Program-made: the position numbers and the translations under genes
Source of the DNA: Escherichia coli
GTDB lineage: Bacteria; Pseudomonadota; Gammaproteobacteria; Enterobacterales; Enterobacteriaceae
Length of the DNA: 64,000 bases
Strand: one strand, 5' to 3'
Assembly (NCBI RefSeq): GCF_022846255.1
Contig: NZ_AP025682.1
Notes under the pieces: model-generated
Told to the model about the DNA's origin: nothing
What the model saw: only the letters and a program-made list of their open reading frames with translations
Database searches by the model: none
Shown here: piece by piece, positions 24,512 to 35,664 of the stretch
Layout: each line of letters starts with the position of its first letter
How positions within the stretch are numbered: the stretch's first letter is position 1

Positions 24512-25150
24512 ATGCCCGGGCGCTTTGAACTAAAACCAACCCTGGAGAAAGTCTGGCACGCGCCGGACAATTTTCGCTTCATGGACCCGCTGCCGCCGAT
24601 GCATCGTCGGGGGATCATTATTGCCGCCATTGTATTGGTGGTCGGATTTCTGCTTCCATCTGATGATACGCCCAACGCGCCGGTGGTGACGCGTGAAGCG
24701 CAGTTAGATATTCAGTCGCAATCACAACCACCGACAGAAGAACAGCTGCGGGCGCAATTAGTCACGCCACAAAATGATCCTGATCAGGTGGCTCCGGTCG
24801 CTCCAGAACCAATACAGGAAGGCCAACCAGAAGAGCAGCCGCAAACCACCCATACGCAACCATTCCAGCCAGATAGCGGAATTGATAATCAATGGCGCTC
24901 CTATCGTGTCGAACCCGGTAAAACGATGGCGCAGCTGTTCCGCGACCACGGACTGCCCGCTACCGATGTCTATGCCATGGCGCAGGTAGAAGGCGCGGAT
25001 AAGCCACTGAGTAATTTGCAAAACGGGCAGATGGTGAAAATCCGCCAGAACGCCAGCGGCGTGGTGACGGGCTTAACCATTGATACGGGGAATAATCAAC
25101 AGGTCCTGTTTACCCGCCAGCCGGATGGCAGTTTTATTCGCGCGCGGTAG
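24512..25150 (+). CDS. ytfB: Cell-division-associated OapA-domain protein YtfB
   Basis: 212-aa product from ATG at 24512 ([23 protein letters not shown]...) preceded by AGGAGG; single TM, Pro/Gln-rich linker, C-terminal OapA region. Confidence 0.9.
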
Positions 25151-25781
25151 ATGAAGGGTCAACCAAAAGCCAGCTAAGGATCGTCTCTTTGATGACCTTA
25201 CGTCTGGCTTCCAGTGCCTGCGGTGAAACCATACTGATGTGATAAACCAGACCAAGCGTATGCTGGTTGATCAAATAATATCCCCCAAGCGCAGCAATAT
25301 TAATATTCACCTGCAATGGGTCGATATCTGGCTTAAAAATATTGTTTTTCTTCCCTTCATCCAATAAGGATTCCATTAACTGCAAGTGCGCATGGTTAAT
25401 TTCTAAAAGACGCTGTGACTTTGCATAATGCACACCCTTACTTTGATTTTCACTATGCACAATTTTTAAAAACCAGGGATTAGAAATATAATAATCCCAT
25501 GTAAAATCGATTATTTTCTCAATGGCTTTCTGTGGCGGAAGATCTGAGAAATCAAGGGCCTTTTCTTTTTGTCGAATATCGTTCCAGGTATATTCCAGTA
25601 CTTCGATAAATAAATTTTCTTTATTACCAAAGTGGTGATAAACCGTCTGTTTACTGCACCCCGCGGCCTTGACGATATTATCGACTCTGGCCCCTTCGTA
25701 ACCATATTCGGCAAATTCATTAACCGCGCATAACAGCAGCTTTTCTTTCAGGCTCTGTACGTTGCTGGTATCAAGATACAT
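25134..25781 (-). CDS. ytfA: TetR/AcrR-family transcriptional regulator (intact YtfA), divergent from the downstream operon
   Basis: 215-aa product from ATG at 25781 ([58 protein letters not shown]...) with TetR N-terminal HTH signature; 3' end overlaps ytfB 3' end. Confidence 0.85.
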
Positions 25782-25903
25782 AACGCTTCCCCACGACCTC
25801 TTCGTGGTGACTATCATAACCTGATTTGATTTCAGCTTCAGAAAAAAGGGCAAAAACTTGTACTTTCATCAGGTTATCAAATGTCCTGTGATCGCCATCG
25901 CAT

Positions 25904-25925
25904 ATCAACCAACTAGATGGTTGAT
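25904..25925. promoter_or_regulatory. Candidate TetR-type operator: 8-bp inverted repeat with 6-bp spacer (atcaacca-actaga-tggttgat) in ytfA/operon divergent intergenic region
   Basis: Perfect 8/8 inverted repeat located 69 bp upstream of the SDR gene start and within the ytfA upstream region. Confidence 0.5.
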
Positions 25926-25993: not shown

Positions 25994-26785
25994 ATGAAAT
26001 CCACTCGTCCTGTTGCCGTGATTACCGGAGCCGCACGTGGTATTGGAAAGGGCTGTGCGCTGGAGCTTGCGCGTGGCGGATTTAATCTGCTGATTAATGA
26101 TCGTCCGGATGCGGATAGCGTAGAAAAATTACATGCCACACAACAAGAATGTCTGGCGGAAGGCGTGGAAGTGATTTGCTTCCCTGCTGATGTGGGCGAT
26201 CTCTCCCTGCATGAAGAGATGCTCGACGCAGCGCAAAACCAGTGGGGACGTCTGGACTGCCTGCTCAACAACGCAGGCATTTCAGTGAAAAAACGCGGTG
26301 ACCTTCTCGACCTCGAACCAGACAGCTTCGACCAAAATATTGCCATTAACACCCGCGCACCGTTCTTCCTTGCTCAGGCATTCAGTAAGCGCTTACTGGC
26401 ACAGCCGAAACCGGAAGCAGAACTGCCGCACCGCTCGATTATTTTCGTCAGTTCCATCAACGCCATCATGCTGGCGATGAATCGCGGCGAATATACCATT
26501 GCCAAAACTGCCGTCTCTGCCGCTGCTCGTCTGTTTGCTGCTCGCCTTTGTAATGAACAAATTGGCGTATATGAAGTGCGTCCTGGTCTCATCAAAACCG
26601 ATATGACTATTCCGGCAACGGCCTATTACGACGAACTGATTGCCAAAGGTCTGGTGCCGTGGGGACGTTGGGGTTATCCGGCTGATATTGCTTCCACTGT
26701 CCGCGCGATGGCGGAAGGTAAACTGATTTACACCTGTGGTCAGGCGGTCGCCATCGACGGCGGCTTAAGTATGCCGCGCTTCTGA
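25994..26785 (+). CDS. Short-chain dehydrogenase/reductase (SDR) family oxidoreductase
   Basis: 263-aa ORF with TGAARGIGKG cofactor-binding motif and YTIAK (YxxxK) catalytic motif. Confidence 0.85.
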   Translation: MKSTRPVAVITGAARGIGKGCALELARGGFNLLINDRPDADSVEKLHATQQECLAEGVEVICFPADVGDLSLHEEMLDAAQNQWGRLDCLLNNAGISVKKRGDLLDLEPDSFDQNIAINTRAPFFLAQAFSKRLLAQPKPEAELPHRSIIFVSSINAIMLAMNRGEYTIAKTAVSAAARLFAARLCNEQIGVYEVRPGLIKTDMTIPATAYYDELIAKGLVPWGRWGYPADIASTVRAMAEGKLIYTCGQAVAIDGGLSMPRF

Positions 26786-26794
26786 GGCTGAATC

Positions 26795-27637
26795 ATGAGA
26801 GATCTGTTACAACGCCCGGATTTATTCAGTATCAATACCGCGACACTGGGCTATAAAACGCCGCTGCCCGCCATTATTGATGCCTGCGCCGCACGCGGTA
26901 TTGGCGCCATTGCCCCCTGGCGCAGGGAGTTGCAGGGTGAAGATCTCCAGCAAATCGCCCGCCAGCTTGCTGCCAGTAACATAAACGTTTCCGGTTTGTG
27001 CCGTAGCACCTACTACACCGCACCGACGCTGGCGGAGCGCAAACTGGTGATTGACGATAACCGCCGGGCGCTGGACGACGCCGCTGTACTGAACGCCGCC
27101 TGTTATATGCAGGTGGTTGGCGGTCTGCCAATGGGAACAAAAGATCTGTACGAAGCACGGGAACAAGTGAAACAAGGGATTCGCCAGTTGCTGCCACATT
27201 CGAAAGAGGTCGGCGTGCCAATTGCACTGGAGCCACTGCACCCGATGACTGCTGCCGATCGTTCTTGTCTGTGCACGTTACGTCAGGCGCTGGACTGGTG
27301 TGATGAACTCGATCCCGATGGCGAATTTGGCCTCGGCGTGGCGGTAGATGTCTACCATGTCTGGTGGGACCCGGATCTCGCCAGTCAGATCCTGCGTGCC
27401 GGAAAACGCATCCTCGCGTTTCATGTTTCCGACTGGTTAGTGCCGACCACCGATCTGGTCAATGACCGTGGAATGCCGGGAGATGGTGTCATCAATATTC
27501 CGTCAATTCGTCGGCTGGTTGAAAACGCCGGATTTAATGGCGCTATTGAACTGGAAATATTCTCACCGTACTGGTGGCAGAAAGATATTAACAGCACGCT
27601 GGATATTAGCGTCGATCGCATCGCACATTATTGTTAA
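26795..27637 (+). CDS. Sugar phosphate isomerase/epimerase (xylose-isomerase-like TIM barrel) family protein
   Basis: 280-aa ORF starting 9 bp after SDR stop, GAGG RBS; family assignment by sequence resemblance to AP-endonuclease-2/TIM-barrel isomerases, moderate certainty. Confidence 0.75.
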   Translation: MRDLLQRPDLFSINTATLGYKTPLPAIIDACAARGIGAIAPWRRELQGEDLQQIARQLAASNINVSGLCRSTYYTAPTLAERKLVIDDNRRALDDAAVLNAACYMQVVGGLPMGTKDLYEAREQVKQGIRQLLPHSKEVGVPIALEPLHPMTAADRSCLCTLRQALDWCDELDPDGEFGLGVAVDVYHVWWDPDLASQILRAGKRILAFHVSDWLVPTTDLVNDRGMPGDGVINIPSIRRLVENAGFNGAIELEIFSPYWWQKDINSTLDISVDRIAHYC

Positions 27638-27646
27638 GGAATAATC

Positions 27647-28423
27647 ATGAGTGACCAACCCGTTCTGTTCAGCAGAGCGGCGGCTTCTTGCCGCCTGACA
27701 TTGAACCGTGAAGATAAATGTCATGCTATTAATGAAGAAATGATCGAATCTCTCGACCATTATTTAAATGAAATTGAAAATGACACGGCATTACGCTTAG
27801 TCGAATTAACGGCAACCGGCGATAAATTCTTTTGTGCGGGCGGCGATATTAAATCGTGGTCGGCCTATTCGCCATTAGATATGGGCAGAAAATGGATTAA
27901 ACGCGGTAATGACGTTTTTAATCGCCTGCGCAACTTACCCCAATTAACCGTTGCGAATCTCAACGGTCATACCATCGGTGGCGGTATTGAACTTGCCTTG
28001 TGCTGCGATATTCGTATCGCTCGCCCCGGCGCGAAATTCTCTAACCCGGAAGTGATGCTCGGCATGGTGCCAGGCTGGATGGGCATTGAGCGAGTGCTTA
28101 ATCAGGTTGGTCCTGTGGTCGGTCGCCAGATGCTGATGCTGGGTAAACGCCTGACGGCGCAGGAAGCTCAGACAGCGAATTTAATTGATGAAGTGGTAGA
28201 AAAAGAACAGGTGGAAAGCTGGATGGCGAACCAGTTAGCGCAGCTGGAAAAATGTGGTCCGGTGGCACTGGCACATATTAAGCAACTGATTCTGGCGCTG
28301 GAAAATAAACACGCCGATTACTCCCACCAGTTACTGGCTGGATTAATGTCCGCCACTCAGGATTGCCAACAGGCGACGCACGCATTTGCCGAAAAAGCCG
28401 GCGTGAGCTTCCACAATCAATAA
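27647..28423 (+). CDS. Enoyl-CoA hydratase/isomerase (crotonase-fold) family protein
   Basis: 258-aa ORF with crotonase motifs (FCAGGDIK; NGHTIGGGIELALCCDIRIA); AAGGA RBS. Confidence 0.85.
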   Translation: MSDQPVLFSRAAASCRLTLNREDKCHAINEEMIESLDHYLNEIENDTALRLVELTATGDKFFCAGGDIKSWSAYSPLDMGRKWIKRGNDVFNRLRNLPQLTVANLNGHTIGGGIELALCCDIRIARPGAKFSNPEVMLGMVPGWMGIERVLNQVGPVVGRQMLMLGKRLTAQEAQTANLIDEVVEKEQVESWMANQLAQLEKCGPVALAHIKQLILALENKHADYSHQLLAGLMSATQDCQQATHAFAEKAGVSFHNQ

Positions 28424-28432
28424 GGAAATTGT

Positions 28433-29974
28433 ATGCGTAAGTTATCAACCGCCGAGACACTGGCGGCGCAAATTCAGGACGGCGCAACCATTGCCATTAG
28501 CGGCAACGGCGGCGGTATGGTGGAAGCTGACCATATTCTGGCCGCCATTGAAGCGCGCTTTCTGCAAACCGGACACCCGCGCGATCTGACATTAATCCAC
28601 TCGCTGGGTATTGGCGATCGCGACAGCAAAGGCACTAACCGTTTTGCTCACGCCGAAATGCTCAAACGCATTATTGCCGGACATTTTACCTGGTCGCCCA
28701 AGATGCAGGAACTGGTGAAAAGCAATGCTATTGAAGCCTACTGTTTCCCTGGTGGCGTAATTCAGGCACTGCTGCGGGAGATCGGTGCCGGACGTCCGGG
28801 GCTTTTTACCCACGTTGGGCTGGGATCGTTTGTTGATCCACGCAATGGTGGCGGTAAGTCGAATGAATGCACTACCGACGACCTGGTAGAACTGATTGAA
28901 ATCGACGGTGAGACCAAACTTCGTTATCGCCCTTTCAAAGTGGACTACGCGATTTTGCGCGGCACCTATGCCGATCCGCGTGGCAACGTCAGCCTCGAAG
29001 AAGAGGCGATTGATATGGATAGCTATTCGATGGCGCTGGCAGCACACAACAGCGGCGGCAAAGTGTTCGTACAGGTCCGCGATGTGCTGGAAGCAGGTAC
29101 CATTGAACCACGTCGGGTCAAACTACCAGGAATTCTGGTCGATGGCATCGTTGAGCACCGCGAACAACCGCAAACCTATCTTGGTGGTTACGACCTGACG
29201 ATCAGCGGTCAACATCGCCGTCTAAGTTCTAACGACGCTATTGAACTGGTTAGTCATCCGGTGCGTCGCCTGATTGCCCGTCGGGCAGCGCGGGAACTGG
29301 TGGCAGGCGCTTCAACCAACTTTGGCTTTGGTATTCCCGGCGGTATTCCTGGGGTTGCACTGCGCGAAGGCGTGCCTTATCAAAGTTTGTGGCTGAGTGT
29401 AGAACAGGGTGTACATAACGGCATGATGCTGGATGATGCTCTGTTCGGCTGCGCCCGTAACGCCGATGCCATTATTCCATCACTCGATCAATTCGAATTC
29501 TACAGTGGCGGCGGTATCGATATCACCTTCCTCGGCATGGGAGAGATGGATCGGTACGGTAACGTCAACGTATCCCATCTCAATGGCAATCTCATTGGCC
29601 CCGGCGGCTTCCTCGAAATTGCGCAAAACGCCCGTAAAGTGGTGTTCTGCGGTACGTTTGACGCCAAAGGCAGCAAGATTGATGTAACGCCTGATGGCCT
29701 GCATATCGCCCAGTCAGGTCAAATCCCCAAACTGGTTACCCAGGTGGAAAAAATTACTTTTAGCGCCGCATACGCACAGCAAAGCAGTCAGGAAGTGCTG
29801 TATATCACCGAACGTGCGGTATTCCAGTTAACGGCAGAAGGCGTTGAATTAATTGAGATCGCCCCTGGCGTAGAGATTGACCGCGACATTCTGCCGTATA
29901 TGGCCTTCCGTCCGATTATCAGGCACCCACGCCTGATGGAAAGTAGCCTGTTTACGCCAATGGAGGATGCATGA
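28433..29974 (+). CDS. Family I CoA-transferase, fused alpha/beta type (YdiF-like acyl-CoA:acetate CoA-transferase)
   Basis: 513-aa ORF with glycine-rich N-terminus (ATIAISGNGGGMVEADHIL), resembles E. coli YdiF-type short-chain acyl-CoA transferases; AAGGA RBS. Confidence 0.8.
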   Translation: MRKLSTAETLAAQIQDGATIAISGNGGGMVEADHILAAIEARFLQTGHPRDLTLIHSLGIGDRDSKGTNRFAHAEMLKRIIAGHFTWSPKMQELVKSNAIEAYCFPGGVIQALLREIGAGRPGLFTHVGLGSFVDPRNGGGKSNECTTDDLVELIEIDGETKLRYRPFKVDYAILRGTYADPRGNVSLEEEAIDMDSYSMALAAHNSGGKVFVQVRDVLEAGTIEPRRVKLPGILVDGIVEHREQPQTYLGGYDLTISGQHRRLSSNDAIELVSHPVRRLIARRAARELVAGASTNFGFGIPGGIPGVALREGVPYQSLWLSVEQGVHNGMMLDDALFGCARNADAIIPSLDQFEFYSGGGIDITFLGMGEMDRYGNVNVSHLNGNLIGPGGFLEIAQNARKVVFCGTFDAKGSKIDVTPDGLHIAQSGQIPKLVTQVEKITFSAAYAQQSSQEVLYITERAVFQLTAEGVELIEIAPGVEIDRDILPYMAFRPIIRHPRLMESSLFTPMEDA

Positions 29975-32043
29975 GTCAGCTTGATGAGGCCATCCTTGAT
30001 GCACTGACACACGTTACTTTCCCAAAGGGTTTTGCACAGGCAGAACCCGCATGGGTTGTCACGGTAGACGGTGTTGATTACCCACTCTGGAAAACAGATG
30101 CCCTGGTAGTCGGCAGTGGTGCAGCCGGGCTACGTGCAGCTGTGGAACTTAAACGCCGCCAGCAAAATGTGTTAATCGCCACCGCCGGGTTATATATGGG
30201 GACATCGGCATGTTCTGGCTCTGATAAACAAACACTGTTTACCGCCGCTACCGCGGGCAACGGCGACAACTTCGCCAAACTGGCAGAGGCACTGGCGAGC
30301 GGTGGGGCGATGGATCACGACACCGCTTATGTTGAAGCGGTAGGTTCTCTGCACACTCTTGGCGGGTTGCAATATCTTGGTCTGGAATTACCGGAAGATC
30401 GCTATGGCGCGATTCTTCGTTATCAAACCGACCATGACGAAGCCGGGCGTGCAACCTCGTGTGGGCCGCGTACCTCAAGGTTAATGGTGAAAGTGCTGCT
30501 GGAAGAAGTACAGCGTCTTGCTATCCCAATGTTGGCCAGTGCAACAGTGATTAAACTGCTGCATCAGCGTGACGAAAACGGTGAAGACCGTGTGGCGGGG
30601 GCAATCCTCGCGACCGGTCATCGCGCCCATAACCCATGGGGGCTGGCAATTGTGACTGCGCCCAATGTGGTACTGGCAACAGGCGGGCCTGGCGAGCTTT
30701 ATCGCGACAGTGTGTATCCACACAAATGTTTCGGCTCGCTGGGGCTGGCGCTGGAGGAAGGTCTGACGTTAACGAATCTGACTGAAAGCCAGTTTGGTAT
30801 AGGCACACCGCGCAGCACGTTTCCGTGGAATTTGTCCGGCACCTATGTACAGGTGATCCCATATATCTATTCCGTGGATGCCGGGGGCAACGAGTATAAC
30901 TTCCTCGCGGATTACTATCGCACCACCCAGGAGCTGGCTTCAAACATTTTCCGTAAAGGCTATCAGTGGCCGTTCCACGCCACGCGGGTAATGGATTTTG
31001 GCTCCAGCTTGTTAGATATGGCAGTAGCGCAAGAGCAGCAACATGGTCGTCAGGTATTTATGGATTTCAATCGTAATCCAGAACCTGTGCCGGGTGACCT
31101 ACCGTTCTCATTAGATCGACTGGACGACGACGTTCGCGCGTATCTGGAAAATAACGACGCTCTGGCACCATCGCCCATCGAACGCCTGCAACAAATGAAT
31201 CCTCTGTCTATCTCGCTGTATAAGATGCACGGTTACGATCTCATCACGCAGCCATTGCAGTTTGCCATGAATAATCAGCACATGAATGGCGGCATTGAAG
31301 TCGATATCTGGGGACAAACATCTCTGCCCGGTTGTTTTGCGGTGGGGGAAGTTGCTGGCACACACGGCGTCACCCGACCTGGCGGCGCGGCGTTGAATGC
31401 CGGGCAGGTTTTTGCTGTTCGTCTGGCGCGCTTTATTGGTTGCACGCAAAAGCGGAATATTGATGGAGATATTGCACAGCTGGCAGCTCCGGCACTGGCT
31501 TCTATAAGAGAGATCATTACTCAGGCGCACGATAACGGGTCCGGGATGCCGTTGTCGGTTGTGAGAGAAAAAATTCAGGCACGAATGTCTGACTATGCGG
31601 GATTTATTTGCCATGCCGATAAAGTCCGACGTGCCACTCGTGATGCCCTGCTATTGAACGAATTTGTCCAACGACATGGATTGGCAATCAAACATGTGGG
31701 TGAAGTTGCCGAGCTGTTTATGTGGCGGCATATGGCGCTGACTTCTGCCGCGGTATTAACACAATTAACGCATTATATTGATGCTGGTGGTGGTAGCCGT
31801 GGGGCGCGTATGGTTATTGATCCACAAGGCAAATGCCTACCACAAACTCGTCGCGGCGCAAAAGAAGAATGGCGTTTTCGCTCTGAACTCGCTGAAGACA
31901 AAAATCACAAATTAACAATTCAATATTCGCAAGGTTCTTTTATTACCGAAGTAAAGTCTTTACGTATGCAACCGTGTATTAACGGTATTTACTTTGAAAA
32001 AAACTGGCCAGACTTTTTAAAGGGAGACATTTACACACAATAA
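29971..32043 (+). CDS. FAD-dependent oxidoreductase, fumarate reductase/succinate dehydrogenase/L-aspartate oxidase flavoprotein superfamily, with long C-terminal extension
   Basis: 690-aa ORF; dinucleotide-binding motif (DALVVGSGAAGLRAAVEL) and C-terminal FAD-binding signature (CFAVGEVAGTHGVTRPGGAALNAGQVF); start ATG overlaps upstream stop (ATGA); GGAGG RBS. Confidence 0.8.
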   Translation: MSQLDEAILDALTHVTFPKGFAQAEPAWVVTVDGVDYPLWKTDALVVGSGAAGLRAAVELKRRQQNVLIATAGLYMGTSACSGSDKQTLFTAATAGNGDNFAKLAEALASGGAMDHDTAYVEAVGSLHTLGGLQYLGLELPEDRYGAILRYQTDHDEAGRATSCGPRTSRLMVKVLLEEVQRLAIPMLASATVIKLLHQRDENGEDRVAGAILATGHRAHNPWGLAIVTAPNVVLATGGPGELYRDSVYPHKCFGSLGLALEEGLTLTNLTESQFGIGTPRSTFPWNLSGTYVQVIPYIYSVDAGGNEYNFLADYYRTTQELASNIFRKGYQWPFHATRVMDFGSSLLDMAVAQEQQHGRQVFMDFNRNPEPVPGDLPFSLDRLDDDVRAYLENNDALAPSPIERLQQMNPLSISLYKMHGYDLITQPLQFAMNNQHMNGGIEVDIWGQTSLPGCFAVGEVAGTHGVTRPGGAALNAGQVFAVRLARFIGCTQKRNIDGDIAQLAAPALASIREIITQAHDNGSGMPLSVVREKIQARMSDYAGFICHADKVRRATRDALLLNEFVQRHGLAIKHVGEVAELFMWRHMALTSAAVLTQLTHYIDAGGGSRGARMVIDPQGKCLPQTRRGAKEEWRFRSELAEDKNHKLTIQYSQGSFITEVKSLRMQPCINGIYFEKNWPDFLKGDIYTQ

Positions 32044-32135
32044 TTTTCAATATTTCCTCTGTACCTGATTTTTATTGCCTATTACATGGAAATACCAACA
32101 ACCAGGGTTTATTAATATAATTAAAAGGTTTAAAA

Positions 32136-33413
32136 ATGAATAAAATAAAGAATTATCGATGGCATATGATTGCCCTCGTATGCTTTATCACTGTAATCAA
32201 TTATCTGGACAGAACGGCGTTAGGTATTGCGGCTCCAACGATTATGGAGACAACCGGAATAACCAAAGAACAATATTCATGGATTGTCAGTGCATTCCAG
32301 TTGGCCTATACATTGGGGCAACCGATAATGGGCTTCTTTATTGATACCGTGGGTCTGAAGTTAAGTTTTGCGATATGTGCCGCAATCTGGGGCCTGGCGA
32401 CAATGGGGCATGCCTTGACAGGAACATGGTCAGGTCTGGCATTTATGCGCGCCCTGATGGGTTTCAGCGAAGCATCGGCAATTCCTGCGGGTGTAAAAAC
32501 CGCATCAACATGGTTCCCGGCAAAAGAGCGTGGCGTGGCGACAGGTGTATTCAATATGGGTACCTCACTCGGCGCGATGCTTGCTCCACCGTTGATTGCC
32601 TGGTGCATTATGTTTCATAGCTGGCAATTTGCGTTTATTGTCTCAGGTAGCCTTGCTTTACTCGCGGCTTTATTTTGGTTCTTTTGTTATAAAGATCCAA
32701 AAGATGCTAAACGCCTTTCTGATGAAGAGCGCCACTATATTGAGTCTGGGCAAGAACAGCATCTTAAAACAGATAAGAAAGAAAAAACGTCAATCAAGCA
32801 TATCCTCAGCCAACGTAATTTCTGGGGGATTGGCATCGCGCGTTTTCTCGCTGACCCGGCATGGGGAACCATTAACTTCTGGGTACCGATTTTCTTCGTC
32901 GAAACGCTGCATTTTAGCCTGAAAGAAATTGCCATGTTCGTCTGGCTGCCTTTCCTGCTGGGCGATCTCGGCTGTTTAGCCAGTGGTTTTGTCGCGAAGT
33001 TCTTCCACGATCGCGGCGTGAGTTTAATTAACTCACGAAGAATTACCTTCACTATTGCAGCCGTCATTATGATGACGATTGGTCTGGTGAGTATTGTCGA
33101 AAATCCCTACATCGCCGTATTACTGATTAGCATTGGCGCATTCTCGCATCAATGTCTTTCTACTGTTGCAGCAACTCTGGGCGGTGACCTATTCAAAAAA
33201 GACGAAGTAGCTACCGCTGTGGGTATGGCAGGAGCCTGTGCATGGAGCGGTCAGTTGATTTTCAACCTGTTTATCGGGGCATTCGTTCACATTATTGGCT
33301 TCGCGCCGTTCTTTATTGCCCTGGCTTTCTTTGACATTATTGGCGCCATTGCGCTGTGGATGCTTATCAAAGTTAAAGACGAAGAACCACAAGTACAGTT
33401 AGCGACAAGCTAA
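32136..33413 (+). CDS. MFS transporter, anion:cation symporter (ACS) family (hexuronate/aldonate-type)
   Basis: 425-aa 12-TM ORF with MFS signature (YLDRTALGIAAP; GxLxDRxG-like loop), resembles ExuT/DgoT-type organic anion permeases. Confidence 0.85.
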   Translation: MNKIKNYRWHMIALVCFITVINYLDRTALGIAAPTIMETTGITKEQYSWIVSAFQLAYTLGQPIMGFFIDTVGLKLSFAICAAIWGLATMGHALTGTWSGLAFMRALMGFSEASAIPAGVKTASTWFPAKERGVATGVFNMGTSLGAMLAPPLIAWCIMFHSWQFAFIVSGSLALLAALFWFFCYKDPKDAKRLSDEERHYIESGQEQHLKTDKKEKTSIKHILSQRNFWGIGIARFLADPAWGTINFWVPIFFVETLHFSLKEIAMFVWLPFLLGDLGCLASGFVAKFFHDRGVSLINSRRITFTIAAVIMMTIGLVSIVENPYIAVLLISIGAFSHQCLSTVAATLGGDLFKKDEVATAVGMAGACAWSGQLIFNLFIGAFVHIIGFAPFFIALAFFDIIGAIALWMLIKVKDEEPQVQLATS

Positions 33414-33422
33414 TTATTTTAC

Positions 33423-33464
33423 ATAGAAACGCTATAATTTAGCTTTGTAGCGTTTCTATTTTTC
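33423..33464 (+). terminator. Rho-independent terminator after MFS transporter gene (possibly bidirectional)
   Basis: Perfect 11-bp stem atagaaacgct ... agcgtttctat followed by tttttct. Confidence 0.6.
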
Positions 33465-33555
33465 TCATAAATTAAACGTCTCTTCCAAAACGTTCAGTAT
33501 CTACTGGCATTGCTTCGCAAATTTATGATTTAGCGAATATATCTAAATAACTATT

Positions 33556-34824
33556 CTAAATTGCCCCCCTGAACGCCTCTGCCATTAACTCTTGCTCACG
33601 ACCAGGTAATCGAAGACGCTCGGCAATGATTCGCCACTGACTGACAATCCCTCTAAAATTAGCAATAATGTCATCTGCTTCTGTCAAACCAAGTCGAAAA
33701 TAATCCACAACTTCTCGAGCTAATTCCAAATCAAGTGCATTATCATTTTCTGTAATATTGAGTTTTAGACCGTCAGACCTGGCAACAGGATTCAAATCAT
33801 ATGCCTCAGAAAGCCGCCAACCTTTTCCCGGTATCAAGATATATCCATGATTACGTAAATGGTCATCGGTATTAGAAACAAGAATATTAAAAACAATCCT
33901 GGACCAGAGTTCCTTAAGGTCAGTATTAGTCTGCGCTCCATGTCTGATAAGAACATCTGCTAATTCCAGATAACTCACACCTGTAGAGGCATCTTCACCA
34001 TCCTGATGCCTGGTTAGTGTCATAGCCGAAGCAAAATGCAGACGCCTTCCCGCATTAGTGCGGTCAAAACGACGAACCATAAAACAATGGTAATTGCTGG
34101 CAAATTTATGCGCCTGAGCAGGTGCAACATTCAGTCCACAGCCAACAGCAAGTGCATTAACGACCATTTCCCATCCACCAACATCATACTCATCTTTTAC
34201 ACTGGGAAATTTAGCGATGTAGAGATACCCAGCTTCATCAACAACACTGGCTTTCGGACGTGTCCCCCCTAATGATCCCCCCGGAGCGATTAGCATTCTT
34301 AACCATTTTTGCCCCATTAGCTCTTTATTATCAGGATCTTCTTCAATTGCCCGGCTAGCCCTTTCCAGACTCGCTATTTCGGTAAATGGTGGGGCTGCAA
34401 CATCAATGCGATTATCAAGAAACTCTCCAGCGTCTTCACGTTTGTATCGAAGAGCCCCAACCCGATAAAGATCATGAACACCTAGTAGATAATCAGACTC
34501 ATAAAGGTGGGAGTCTTTATCACATAACCCGTCTCGAATATCCCTCTCAAAACGACGCTTCATTAGCATACGCCCCCAACGATCCGGGCAGGAATCACTA
34601 AATGCACCAAATTTATCCTTTGGAGGAATTGGGTACTGTGCTCCCTCATACAACATTATTTCAGGATCTAACTGAATGAAATTAAGTGAAGGATCTGCAA
34701 GCGCCTTTTTATCGTACTCAAACTCAAATATCTCACGCGTCCGAGTGCGGCGACTGTGTAAATAACCAATCCGCTCCGGACCATCCAGGCCTTCCCAATC
34801 CGCATACACTCCGATTAATGCCAT
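33556..34824 (-). CDS. HipA-family serine/threonine kinase (type II toxin-antitoxin toxin candidate)
   Basis: 422-aa ORF; HipA N-terminal motif (FSDSCPDRWGRMLMKRR resembles HipA FDNLLPDSPIVRDRIVKRY), glycine-rich loop (IAPGGSLGGTRPKASVV), catalytic motif (LVSNTDDHLRNHGYIL); AAGGAAA RBS; starts 2 nt after upstream HTH gene stop. Confidence 0.85.
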   Translation of the reverse strand: MALIGVYADWEGLDGPERIGYLHSRRTRTREIFEFEYDKKALADPSLNFIQLDPEIMLYEGAQYPIPPKDKFGAFSDSCPDRWGRMLMKRRFERDIRDGLCDKDSHLYESDYLLGVHDLYRVGALRYKREDAGEFLDNRIDVAAPPFTEIASLERASRAIEEDPDNKELMGQKWLRMLIAPGGSLGGTRPKASVVDEAGYLYIAKFPSVKDEYDVGGWEMVVNALAVGCGLNVAPAQAHKFASNYHCFMVRRFDRTNAGRRLHFASAMTLTRHQDGEDASTGVSYLELADVLIRHGAQTNTDLKELWSRIVFNILVSNTDDHLRNHGYILIPGKGWRLSEAYDLNPVARSDGLKLNITENDNALDLELAREVVDYFRLGLTEADDIIANFRGIVSQWRIIAERLRLPGREQELMAEAFRGAI

Positions 34825-34826
34825 AA

Positions 34827-35318
34827 TTAATTTCCTTTTAACGGTTTTTTTATCGGTTTTAATAGTGCTGCAAGAGAGGTTGATGTTTCTCCTGTAATAG
34901 ATGGCGTTGAGCCTTCTGCCAGTGCTGTTAAATCCGTGGTGAGTAAACCTTCTTTCTCATACCTCGTTTGAAAAGGGTCTGTCTGAATACCTTCTTCATT
35001 TTTACCTGATGAACGAGAAAGCCCTCTTTTTTTAATCAAACGGGAATCCTGGAGCTGACGCCCTAAGTCGTCTTCAGCTGCAAGCTTATTTAAATCCGTT
35101 TCCAGGCCCAAAACCTGCATCACAGACAAATATGCCCCTATCGTGACCCCTGCACTTCCTGACTCCAGAGAGCGCAATGTTATTGGCGACATCCCAGCAC
35201 GTTCAGCAACTTGCTTTGCGGTAAGCCTGCGTCGTAAACGAGCAAGTTTCAGCCGCTCACCAAATTCACTAAGCATCTGATTCGTATAAGGGAGTAACGG
35301 TGCTGTTTTTTTACCCAT
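34827..35318 (-). CDS. XRE-family HTH protein, HipB-like antitoxin candidate with ~90-aa Ser/Thr-rich C-terminal extension
   Basis: 163-aa ORF; HTH_XRE region ([32 protein letters not shown]); immediately upstream of and co-oriented with the HipA-like gene; no clear SD at the first ATG, alternative start at Met15 (35276) possible. Confidence 0.75.
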
Positions 35319-35338
35319 AGTGATAATATTTTATCTTT

Positions 35339-35359
35339 TTATGGCTATGATAGCCATAA
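35339..35359. promoter_or_regulatory. Candidate operator: perfect 10-1-10 palindrome ttatggctat-g-atagccataa upstream of HipB-like gene
   Basis: Perfect inverted repeat 21-41 bp upstream of the HTH gene start codon in an AT-rich promoter region. Confidence 0.55.
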
Positions 35360-35664
35360 TATTAGCATTTATTGGATTGAACGCACCTGCAAAGCGTTCA
35401 AGATTACGAAAGTGATGATATTTTATCCTTTTATATATAAAAACAATAAAATAACAGCGCATTCATATATAACATATTGTTTTTATTATCATACAAGGGA
35501 GACGATCGCTGTATTGATGCTTTTGTCGTGTTTTACGCGTAAAAAACATGACACGAACTACCAGCGGCGAGGCTGGGGGCCAGGTATGGGTACTGCGAAC
35601 TTTTTATAAAAGGAATAACAAGAGATTTATGGAGGGAACGTCTGTTTCTGCGGTTTTTATCACT

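Follow-up and report, generated by a model that had tools for sequence, protein, structure and literature searches.

A 64,000-nucleotide stretch of Escherichia coli DNA (RefSeq assembly GCF_022846255.1, contig NZ_AP025682.1), hereafter the window, carries six plus-strand open reading frames (ORFs) at 25994-33413 whose spacing suggests that they are co-transcribed as one operon (Table 1). They encode a short-chain dehydrogenase/reductase (SDR), a TIM-barrel protein, a crotonase-fold enoyl-CoA hydratase (ECH), a CoA-transferase (CoAT), a flavoprotein, and a major facilitator superfamily (MFS) transporter. An original prediction, made from the sequence alone, had placed six plus-strand genes here, and all six ORFs are present. 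It had also described the genes as separated by 9-bp gaps or overlapping. That is so for the first four junctions, where gaps of 9, 9, and 9 bp are followed by a 4-bp ATGA overlap, but not for the last: the flavoprotein and MFS genes are 92 bp apart. The prediction had further given each gene a Shine-Dalgarno sequence, and a GAGG, AAGGA, or GGAGG motif indeed precedes every one of the six starts. The hairpin terminator that it had proposed was found as well, with its T-run, though only 4 of the 15 stem pairs are G-C.

Table 1. Features of the operon and its control region (window coordinates)
Feature	Position	Strand	Basis or remarks
TetR/AcrR-family regulator (TetR_N + TetR_C_29)	25134-25781	-	ORF; Pfam domains on orthologues; divergent from operon
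CRP-like site TGTGATCGCCATCGCA, TGTGA-N6-TCACA type	25887-25902		Divergent control region; read from sequence
Candidate TetR operator, inverted repeat ATCAACCA-N6-TGGTTGAT	25904-25925		Detected as hairpin
SDR, 263 aa, PRK12745 family, database name "3-ketoacyl-ACP reductase"	25994-26785	+	NF009386, 420 bits
Xylose-isomerase-like TIM-barrel protein (AP_endonuc_2), 280 aa	26795-27637	+	PF01261, E 6e-37
Crotonase-fold enoyl-CoA hydratase/dehydratase (ECH), 258 aa	27647-28423	+	NCBIfam short-chain enoyl-CoA hydratase families
CoA-transferase (CoAT), fused alpha/beta family I, YdiF/Pct type, 513 aa	28433-29974	+	YdiF 2AHU, E 5e-114
Soluble flavoprotein, SdhA/FrdA fold, FAD_binding_2, 690 aa	29971-32043	+	PF00890
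ExuT-like ACS-family MFS transporter, 425 aa	32136-33413	+	ExuT, 47% identity, E 2e-150
Intrinsic-terminator-like hairpin, then T-run	33423-33459	+	15-bp stem, 7-nt loop, TTTTTCTC tail

The regulator gene, whose start we took from the RefSeq annotation of strain 536, is separated from the operon by a region containing the CRP-like site and the palindrome. When intergenic regions were compared, the CRP-like site proved to be kept in E. coli, Klebsiella, Salmonella, Sodalis, and Brenneria, and the ACCAAC...GTTGA core of the candidate TetR operator was invariant across five genera. A promoter scan found no sigma-70-like site on the operon strand of the control region. A divergent TetR gene, a conserved CRP-like site, and a palindrome fit the layout that would be expected of a repressible, catabolite-controlled catabolic operon. 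The TetR protein itself has a weak match to AcuR.

The flanks of the operon have features of their own. The 3' ends of ytfB (plus strand) and the TetR gene (minus strand) overlap by 17 bp (25134-25150). Between the operon and rplI, an intact HipA-family toxin gene (422 aa) and a gene for a 163-aa helix-turn-helix, antitoxin-like protein occupy 33556-35318 on the minus strand. The HipA gene is annotated as frameshifted in strain 536, and Klebsiella and Salmonella have an EamA gene at that place; the second E. coli allele described below lacks both. G+C content is 0.42-0.45 over the MFS gene and the HipBA-like pair (31500-35500), 0.42 over the TetR gene, and 0.49-0.56 in the enzyme genes. The low value at the MFS/HipBA end fits a replacement of the operon's transporter end.

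Proteins encoded by the operon

RefSeq, UniRef, JGI, and NCBIfam have only generic names for all six proteins, such as acyl CoA:acetate/3-ketoacid CoA transferase, 3-ketoacyl-ACP reductase, and enoyl-CoA hydratase. Profile and PDB matches support the families originally assigned to the SDR, the TIM barrel, the crotonase, the family I CoAT, and the anion:cation symporter (ACS)-type MFS protein. The best PDB matches of the SDR are the uncharacterized SDRs 4DA9 and 4ONE; its orthologues of 54-57% identity lie directly upstream of ECH-CoAT genes in Pseudovibrio and in peat metagenome loci. The close relatives of the TIM-barrel protein are the structural-genomics proteins 3QC0/3JU2 (SMc04130, function unknown; E 7e-85) and 7VPF, and its sole NCBIfam match is a faint one to IolO.

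The ECH matches NCBIfam short-chain ECH families (E 1e-44). In rat ECH, Glu144 and Glu164 are the catalytic glutamates, and the translation of the E. coli gene contains both of the corresponding motifs, GGGIELALCCD and FSNPE. Hence, the crotonase should be a true hydratase or dehydratase. For the CoAT, the presence of PF01144 on orthologues and the full-length match to YdiF point to fused alpha and beta CoA_trans domains. Within its SxEQGxHNG motif, S322, E324, Q325, and G326 are invariant in 12 orthologues (61-88% identity), and Glu324 is presumed to be the catalytic glutamate that forms the enzyme-CoA thioester, which would make it the counterpart of YdiF Glu333.

The flavoprotein had been called fumarate-reductase-like. 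This description suits its fold but not its catalytic residues. The protein matches PF00890 (E 1e-24), and its AlphaFold model (predicted local distance difference test score 88.5, predicted template-modeling score 0.92) has SdhA/FrdA as its top Foldseek matches (template-modeling scores 0.63-0.66, 14-18% identity); Foldseek returned nothing nearer. The position of FrdA His44, which carries the covalent 8-alpha-FAD, falls within the sequence GTSACSGS, which has no His, and the FAD is predicted to be non-covalent. In FrdA, His232, Thr244, Glu245, Arg287, His355, and Arg390 are the dicarboxylate-binding and proton-shuttle residues. When the flavoprotein was aligned with FrdA and NadB, His232, Thr244, Glu245, and Arg287 had no equivalents, while Arg390 was kept as R469, along with neighboring Q436-H437. 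Compared with FrdA/SdhA and NadB, it shares the fold and the FAD-binding motifs at 14-22% identity but has an N-terminal extension of about 40 residues and invariant motifs specific to its family, rich in Trp, Asn, Ser, Tyr, Gln, and Lys (WNLSGTY, KGYQWP). No gene for an Fe-S subunit or a membrane anchor lies in or beside the operon. We rejected a fumarate reductase: four of the catalytic residues, the covalent-FAD His, and the Fe-S partner are missing. A monocarboxylate substrate, possibly a sugar acid, would fit this protein better. The flavoprotein family comprises 411 representative clusters at E <= 1e-30, and no member among the search returns carries a functional name.

The transporters bear on the substrate class. 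The MFS protein aligns with K-12 ExuT over its full length, whereas its identity to GudP, DgoT, and LgoT is only 24-28%. The MFS proteins that Klebsiella, Salmonella, and Sodalis have at this point of the operon form a separate ExuT-like lineage, only about 50% identical to the E. coli MFS protein and 46-48% identical to ExuT, and in Azospirillum an ExuT-like MFS gene (46-48%) sits beside ECH-CoAT-DUF993-TIM. A second E. coli allele of the operon, described below, has a tripartite ATP-independent periplasmic (TRAP) transporter instead. The best PDB matches of its binding protein, DctP, include 4N15, 4N91, and 4MHF, which are binders of D-glucuronate or of glucuronate/galacturonate (Herman et al., PMC7660916). 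Direct transfer of the STM3169 ligand-residue numbering to E. coli DctP gave mismatches, and a constant offset of -4 fitted. By this positional heuristic, which involves no structural alignment, DctP keeps six of the seven glucuronate-contact residues (N, Q, R, R, N, D) and has Gln in place of Glu74. One position in the operon is thus filled by three unrelated transporters, all of which indicate a C6 sugar acid resembling glucuronate, and the acid handled by the operon is most likely of the hexuronate type.

Recurring gene modules, two alleles, and loss in K-12

To compare gene neighborhoods, 100,044 species genomes were searched with a profile of the flavoprotein, followed by tblastn and clustering of neighbors; the neighborhoods of CoAT orthologues were compared as well. 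A metagenome scan with a CoAT profile returned mostly E. coli contigs, plus 15 diverse loci whose neighbors were largely uninformative. The most distant flavoprotein relatives lay on short metagenome contigs with little context.

Two sets of partners recur. ECH and CoAT genes are adjacent in every examined locus with a CoAT orthologue of 62-79% identity, often with SDR and/or TIM genes. The arrangement is TetR | SDR-TIM-ECH-CoAT in Pseudovibrio, (TetR)-SDR-ECH-CoAT on peat Acidobacteria-like contigs, and Gfo/Idh/MocA-ECH-CoAT in one acidobacterium. In Azospirillum, the ECH-CoAT-DUF993-TIM genes are accompanied by SDR, LacI, and ExuT-like MFS genes, and one metagenome scaffold carries TIM-ECH-CoAT-TetR-SDR-FAD-SDR between TRAP systems. 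The flavoprotein gene, for its part, is found with SDR, TIM, and Gfo/Idh/MocA genes in Brenneria, Pseudescherichia, Phytobacter, Lentisphaeria, and Opitutia. Its contexts in Rhizobiales and Rhodobacteraceae contain two glucose-methanol-choline (GMC) oxidoreductases, a levoglucosan-dehydrogenase-like Gfo protein, LacI, a sugar ATP-binding cassette (ABC) transporter, and a KdgK-like kinase; in Phycisphaerae they contain an SDR, an Eda-like aldolase, a BNR_4 propeller, and a PfkB kinase. The SDR-TIM combination accordingly has three kinds of company: only the FAD gene, only ECH-CoAT, or the two together, the last being the case in E. coli, Klebsiella, Salmonella, and Sodalis. By family assignment, the recurring partners are sugar and sugar-acid genes rather than fatty-acid genes.

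Some individual loci can be described more closely. At L035 (48-12043) and L058 (234-13049), the flavoprotein gene lies downstream of sugar ABC, one or two GMC, LacI, and Gfo/Idh/MocA genes; L035 additionally has a gene for a Dabb protein, and in L058 a KdgK-like kinase gene follows the flavoprotein gene. The Phycisphaerae block (L071, 6809-13206; L087, 6720-14223) consists of an OYE/GltD-type fusion oxidoreductase, an SDR, an Eda-like aldolase, a BNR_4 beta-propeller, the flavoprotein, and an MtnA-like isomerase, with the PfkB kinase present only in L087, between the last two. On one peat contig (L178, 10655-13206), genes for a pyrimidine-nucleoside phosphorylase and NupC lie just downstream of SDR-ECH-CoAT, a single case that may be due to chance. 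The operon of Sodalis ligni has a flavodoxin gene immediately after its MFS gene (L095, 13987-14436), and this flavodoxin may serve the flavoprotein as a redox partner.

The five enzyme genes are present, at a coverage of at least 80%, in 3114 of 5426 complete E. coli genomes (57%). The allele of the window, in which the MFS gene is followed by the HipBA-like pair, is matched by 1654 genomes, the best matches including the uropathogenic E. coli (UPEC) strains 536 and F11. In the second allele, found in 1446 complete genomes, DctQ-DctM-DctP genes stand in place of the MFS gene and the HipBA-like pair (L010, 12103-14946; L100, 9014-11858). Its enzyme genes have 90-95% DNA identity to those of the window, and the last ~230 bp of the flavoprotein gene differ between the two alleles. 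On some E. coli/Shigella contigs with the TRAP allele (L101, 9001-11960), the TIM gene is cut to 207 aa and the CoAT gene is split into ORFs of 151 and 339 aa, which suggests decay of the operon in some of these lineages.

Klebsiella oxytoca and some Salmonella strains have the same cluster between ytfB and rplI. K-12 had been said to have yjfZ near this position and not the operon, and in MG1655 the interval from rplI to ytfB indeed contains yjfZ together with the pseudogene ytfA. BLASTN identified ytfA as the 3' part of the TetR gene (98% identity; window 25134-25536). Adjoining it are 102 bp left over from the SDR gene, at 79% identity (window 26083-26184; K-12 locus L099, 3088-3596). These scars, together with the use of the same site in Klebsiella and Salmonella, indicate that the operon is an ancestral occupant of the site which the K-12 lineage lost by deletion, and not an island that pathogens acquired.

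The original prediction, which had set aside the cai operon among others, could name no E. coli pathway for these genes, and our searches of NCBIfam, source names, and the full-text literature likewise found neither a named E. coli pathway nor a characterized homologue. A synteny study from 2010 lists CFT073 c5298-c5303 as an uncharacterized six-gene set, labelled "3-ketoacid metabolism," that is found in UPEC and many other strains and is absent from K-12 and O157 (PMC2831201). From its position, gene number, and label, this set is apparently the cluster of the window. Literature searches on PDB 7VPF, SMc04130, DUF993, and combinations of gene names found nothing relevant, and PMC9881135 was dropped as a match via a generic table only. 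New here are the transporter affinities, namely an MFS protein that is an ExuT paralogue and a TRAP allele with glucuronate-type contacts, and the recurrence of the enzymes as modules.

Possible function of the operon

From the observed gene content, family membership, conservation, transporter affinities, and conserved control sites, we tentatively read these genes, with somewhat less than even confidence, as a catabolite-controlled, TetR-repressed operon for uptake and CoA-thioester breakdown of a hexuronate-type sugar acid. The acid is best read as glucuronate-like, or as a close analogue outside the reach of the classical UxaC route. The ExuT paralogue, or the glucuronate-type TRAP system of the second allele, would import it, and the YdiF/Pct-type CoAT would turn its carboxylate into a CoA thioester. 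The thioester would acidify the neighboring C-H, allowing the canonical two-Glu crotonase to catalyze a hydration or dehydration at the alpha,beta (C5-C4) positions. The SDR could interconvert beta-hydroxy and beta-keto groups or reduce the resulting keto-sugar acid, and the TIM-barrel enzyme could carry out a ketol isomerization of a keto-deoxy sugar acid, like KduI or OtnI. The flavoprotein, with flavodoxin as its likely partner, would perform a two-electron step beside the carboxylate, either reduction or formation of a C=C bond or oxidation of the alpha-C-H. CoA would be handed to the next substrate molecule by the CoAT, which would explain why the operon has neither a ligase nor a thiolase. 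The product would probably join the route through 2-keto-3-deoxygluconate (KDG), KdgK, and Eda that is encoded elsewhere in the genome. The outline that had been proposed earlier, in which an acid is imported, activated as a CoA thioester, hydrated, and oxidized or reduced, is consistent with every family assignment, a dehydration fitting as well as a hydration.

How does this compare with known systems? The Ashwell hexuronate pathway, with its KduI/KduD branch, resembles the operon in having an ExuT-subfamily transporter, a CRP-type site, and KDG as the expected end point, and KDG-kinase and Eda-like genes adjoin relatives of the flavoprotein. However, no operon enzyme matches UxaC, the mannonate or altronate oxidoreductases or dehydratases, or cupin KduI in NCBIfam, and the described uronate routes have no counterpart to the operon's CoAT and crotonase. 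YdiF, an acyl-CoA:acetate CoA-transferase encoded in the ydiF-ydiO-ydiQRST cluster, is a fused family I transferase like the operon's CoAT and likewise adjoins redox flavoproteins of unknown physiological substrate. The CoAT of the operon nevertheless belongs to a separate, tightly conserved subfamily, whose orthologues in other phyla (62-79%) are always beside a crotonase gene, and the E. coli operon lacks genes for an acyl-CoA dehydrogenase (ACAD) and an electron transfer flavoprotein (ETF). We take the operon to be an uncharacterized variant of the sugar-acid catabolic type; its set of enzymes is without precedent for uronates.

Several points weigh against a hexuronate. Crotonases normally use acyl-CoAs with an alpha-CH2, and a hexuronyl-CoA bears an alpha-hydroxyl or a ring oxygen; E. 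coli, moreover, already has a complete hexuronate pathway. The best PDB match of the crotonase is a C3 enzyme, the 3-hydroxypropionyl-CoA dehydratase 5ZAI (E 4e-40). Nor does 47% identity settle what a transporter carries: GudP and DgoT, at 43% identity to each other, differ in the sugar acid that they transport, and the transporter argument hence reaches a class rather than a single compound. The Brenneria and Pseudescherichia relatives have aromatic-acid-type MFS genes and no ExuT-like ones there, and the peat and soil SDR-ECH-CoAT loci have no sugar-related neighbor. Our literature search found no mention of uronyl-CoA species. No characterized orthologue was found for any operon enzyme, and we infer each individual reaction, as we do the order of the steps, the product, and the substrate class itself.

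Perhaps, then, the operon acts on a different kind of acid? The main rival, which we consider rather unlikely, is a reductive, acrylate-type electron sink for a short 3-oxo or 3-hydroxy acid (3-oxopropionate, 3-hydroxypropionate, or acrylate). The CoAT would form the thioester, the SDR would reduce 3-oxo to 3-hydroxy, the crotonase would dehydrate, the flavoprotein would reduce the enoyl-CoA, and the CoAT would free the saturated acid. The same kinds of enzymes convert 3-oxopropionate to propionate in Anaerostipes rhamnosivorans (oxcT-ecdH-acaD with AcaD-Etf; PMC8355322), where a Pct-type CoAT, an ECH, a dehydrogenase, and an enoyl-CoA reductase make up a thiolase-free CoA cycle on a sugar/cyclitol pathway. 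The likeness is one of enzyme kind; the Anaerostipes reductase is ACAD/Etf, whereas that of the operon would be a FrdA-fold flavoprotein, and the Anaerostipes operon has neither a TIM barrel nor an ExuT-like transporter. The cai operon, which converts carnitine to gamma-butyrobetaine, follows the same logic of a CoAT, crotonase dehydration, flavoprotein reduction, and passage of CoA to the next substrate, drawing on an external low-potential electron donor, but it differs in its family III transferase (CaiB), its ACAD (CaiA), its betaine substrate, and its BCCT-type transporter. An electron sink would also suit the C3 match of the crotonase, the name propionate CoA-transferase that JGI gives to several CoAT orthologues, the stand-alone SDR-ECH-CoAT triads under TetR in soil bacteria, the AcuR match of the regulator, and the flavodoxin gene after the Sodalis operon. 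At two loci, L017 and L077, CoAT-ECH and an acryloyl-CoA-reductase-like ACAD (with EtfAB in L017) even stand beside the FAD gene. Yet the joint presence of ACAD and FAD protein there means that the two are probably not equivalent. The scheme gives no role to the TIM-barrel gene, which is tightly linked to ECH-CoAT, and leaves the three independent hexuronate-type transporters at the operon end unexplained; members of the FAD family, furthermore, occur mostly without CoA enzymes, beside KDG-kinase and Eda genes.

Alternatively, the operon might break down a deoxy sugar acid, for example 2-deoxyribonate, 2-deoxygluconate, or 5-deoxyglucuronate. Such acids offer the alpha-CH2/beta-OH arrangement that CoAT, crotonase, and 3-hydroxyacyl-CoA-type SDR enzymes normally use, and the chemistry suits a canonical crotonase. 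We nonetheless regard it as improbable. Klebsiella michiganensis provides a precedent within the Enterobacteriaceae, degrading deoxyribonate as a CoA thioester after MFS uptake, with a cluster for a CoA synthetase, a beta-hydroxyacyl-CoA dehydrogenase, a thiolase, a glycerate kinase, and a lactonase (PMC6365646). That gene set is absent from the window region, and we rejected identity of the two pathways; the published Klebsiella list, in turn, has no TIM barrel, crotonase, or FrdA-fold flavoprotein. The thymidine phosphorylase and NupC genes beside SDR-ECH-CoAT at one peat locus would agree with a deoxy sugar acid, as would the scores of FAD-family PfkB neighbors on models of IolC (5-dehydro-2-deoxygluconokinase), but the operon has no thiolase or aldolase, and the residues kept in the TRAP binding protein match glucuronate binders. 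Still less probable is a beta-oxidation-like breakdown of a hydroaromatic or alicyclic acid (quinate, shikimate, or cyclohexanecarboxylate). Dehydroshikimate dehydratases do belong among the AP_endonuc_2 TIM barrels, a PcaK-like aromatic-acid MFS gene lies beside SDR-TIM-FAD in Brenneria, and models of cyclohexane-1-carbonyl-CoA dehydrogenase are also matched by the ACADs that neighbor the FAD gene in L017 and L077. Against this stand the ExuT-like or uronate-type TRAP transporters in the E. coli, Klebsiella, Salmonella, Sodalis, and Azospirillum clusters, the lack of a ring-cleaving hydrolase, and the lack of any specific NCBIfam match above cut-off to enzymes of these pathways. A version leading from shikimate or quinate to cyclohexanecarboxyl-CoA, like ansJKLM/chcA, is weak; here too the transporters point elsewhere. 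Ordinary short-chain fatty-acid or ketone-body metabolism, suggested by the generic database names and by the "3-ketoacid metabolism" label of PMC2831201, is very improbable. The ato system has a two-subunit AtoDA, the thiolase AtoB, and AtoE; the operon has a fused CoAT and neither a thiolase nor an AtoE- or FadL-type transporter. It does have a sugar-type TIM barrel and an ExuT-like transporter, and its relatives have sugar-catabolic neighbors.

Returning to a hexuronate-type acid as the substrate, a more specific proposal can be made, which we hold to be doubtful. Hexuronates, or epimeric or modified uronic acids refractory to UxaC, may be catabolized via uronyl-CoA thioesters. The CoAT and crotonase would then accomplish an elimination or hydration at C4-C5 for which polysaccharide lyases or metal-dependent dehydratases are otherwise required, and a new family of FrdA-fold flavoproteins would act on sugar acids.

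If true, uronyl-CoA chemistry would be a new, previously undescribed type of pathway that is widespread among bacteria of soil and sea as well as gut Enterobacteriaceae. The operon is missing from K-12 and so escaped genetics, although its carriers make up more than half of sequenced E. coli, the uropathogenic strains 536 and F11 among them. In the gut and urinary tract, glucuronate and related uronic acids from host and diet are among the major sources of carbon. If E. coli had a second uronate route of different chemistry, metabolic models of its commensal and pathogenic strains would have to change, and niche differences between lineages could also be explained. Genes of the flavoprotein family adjoin sugar-acid genes in Planctomycetota, Verrucomicrobiota, Rhizobiales, and Rhodobacteraceae, and the CoAT-crotonase pair is equally widespread; a function for either would annotate thousands of genes.

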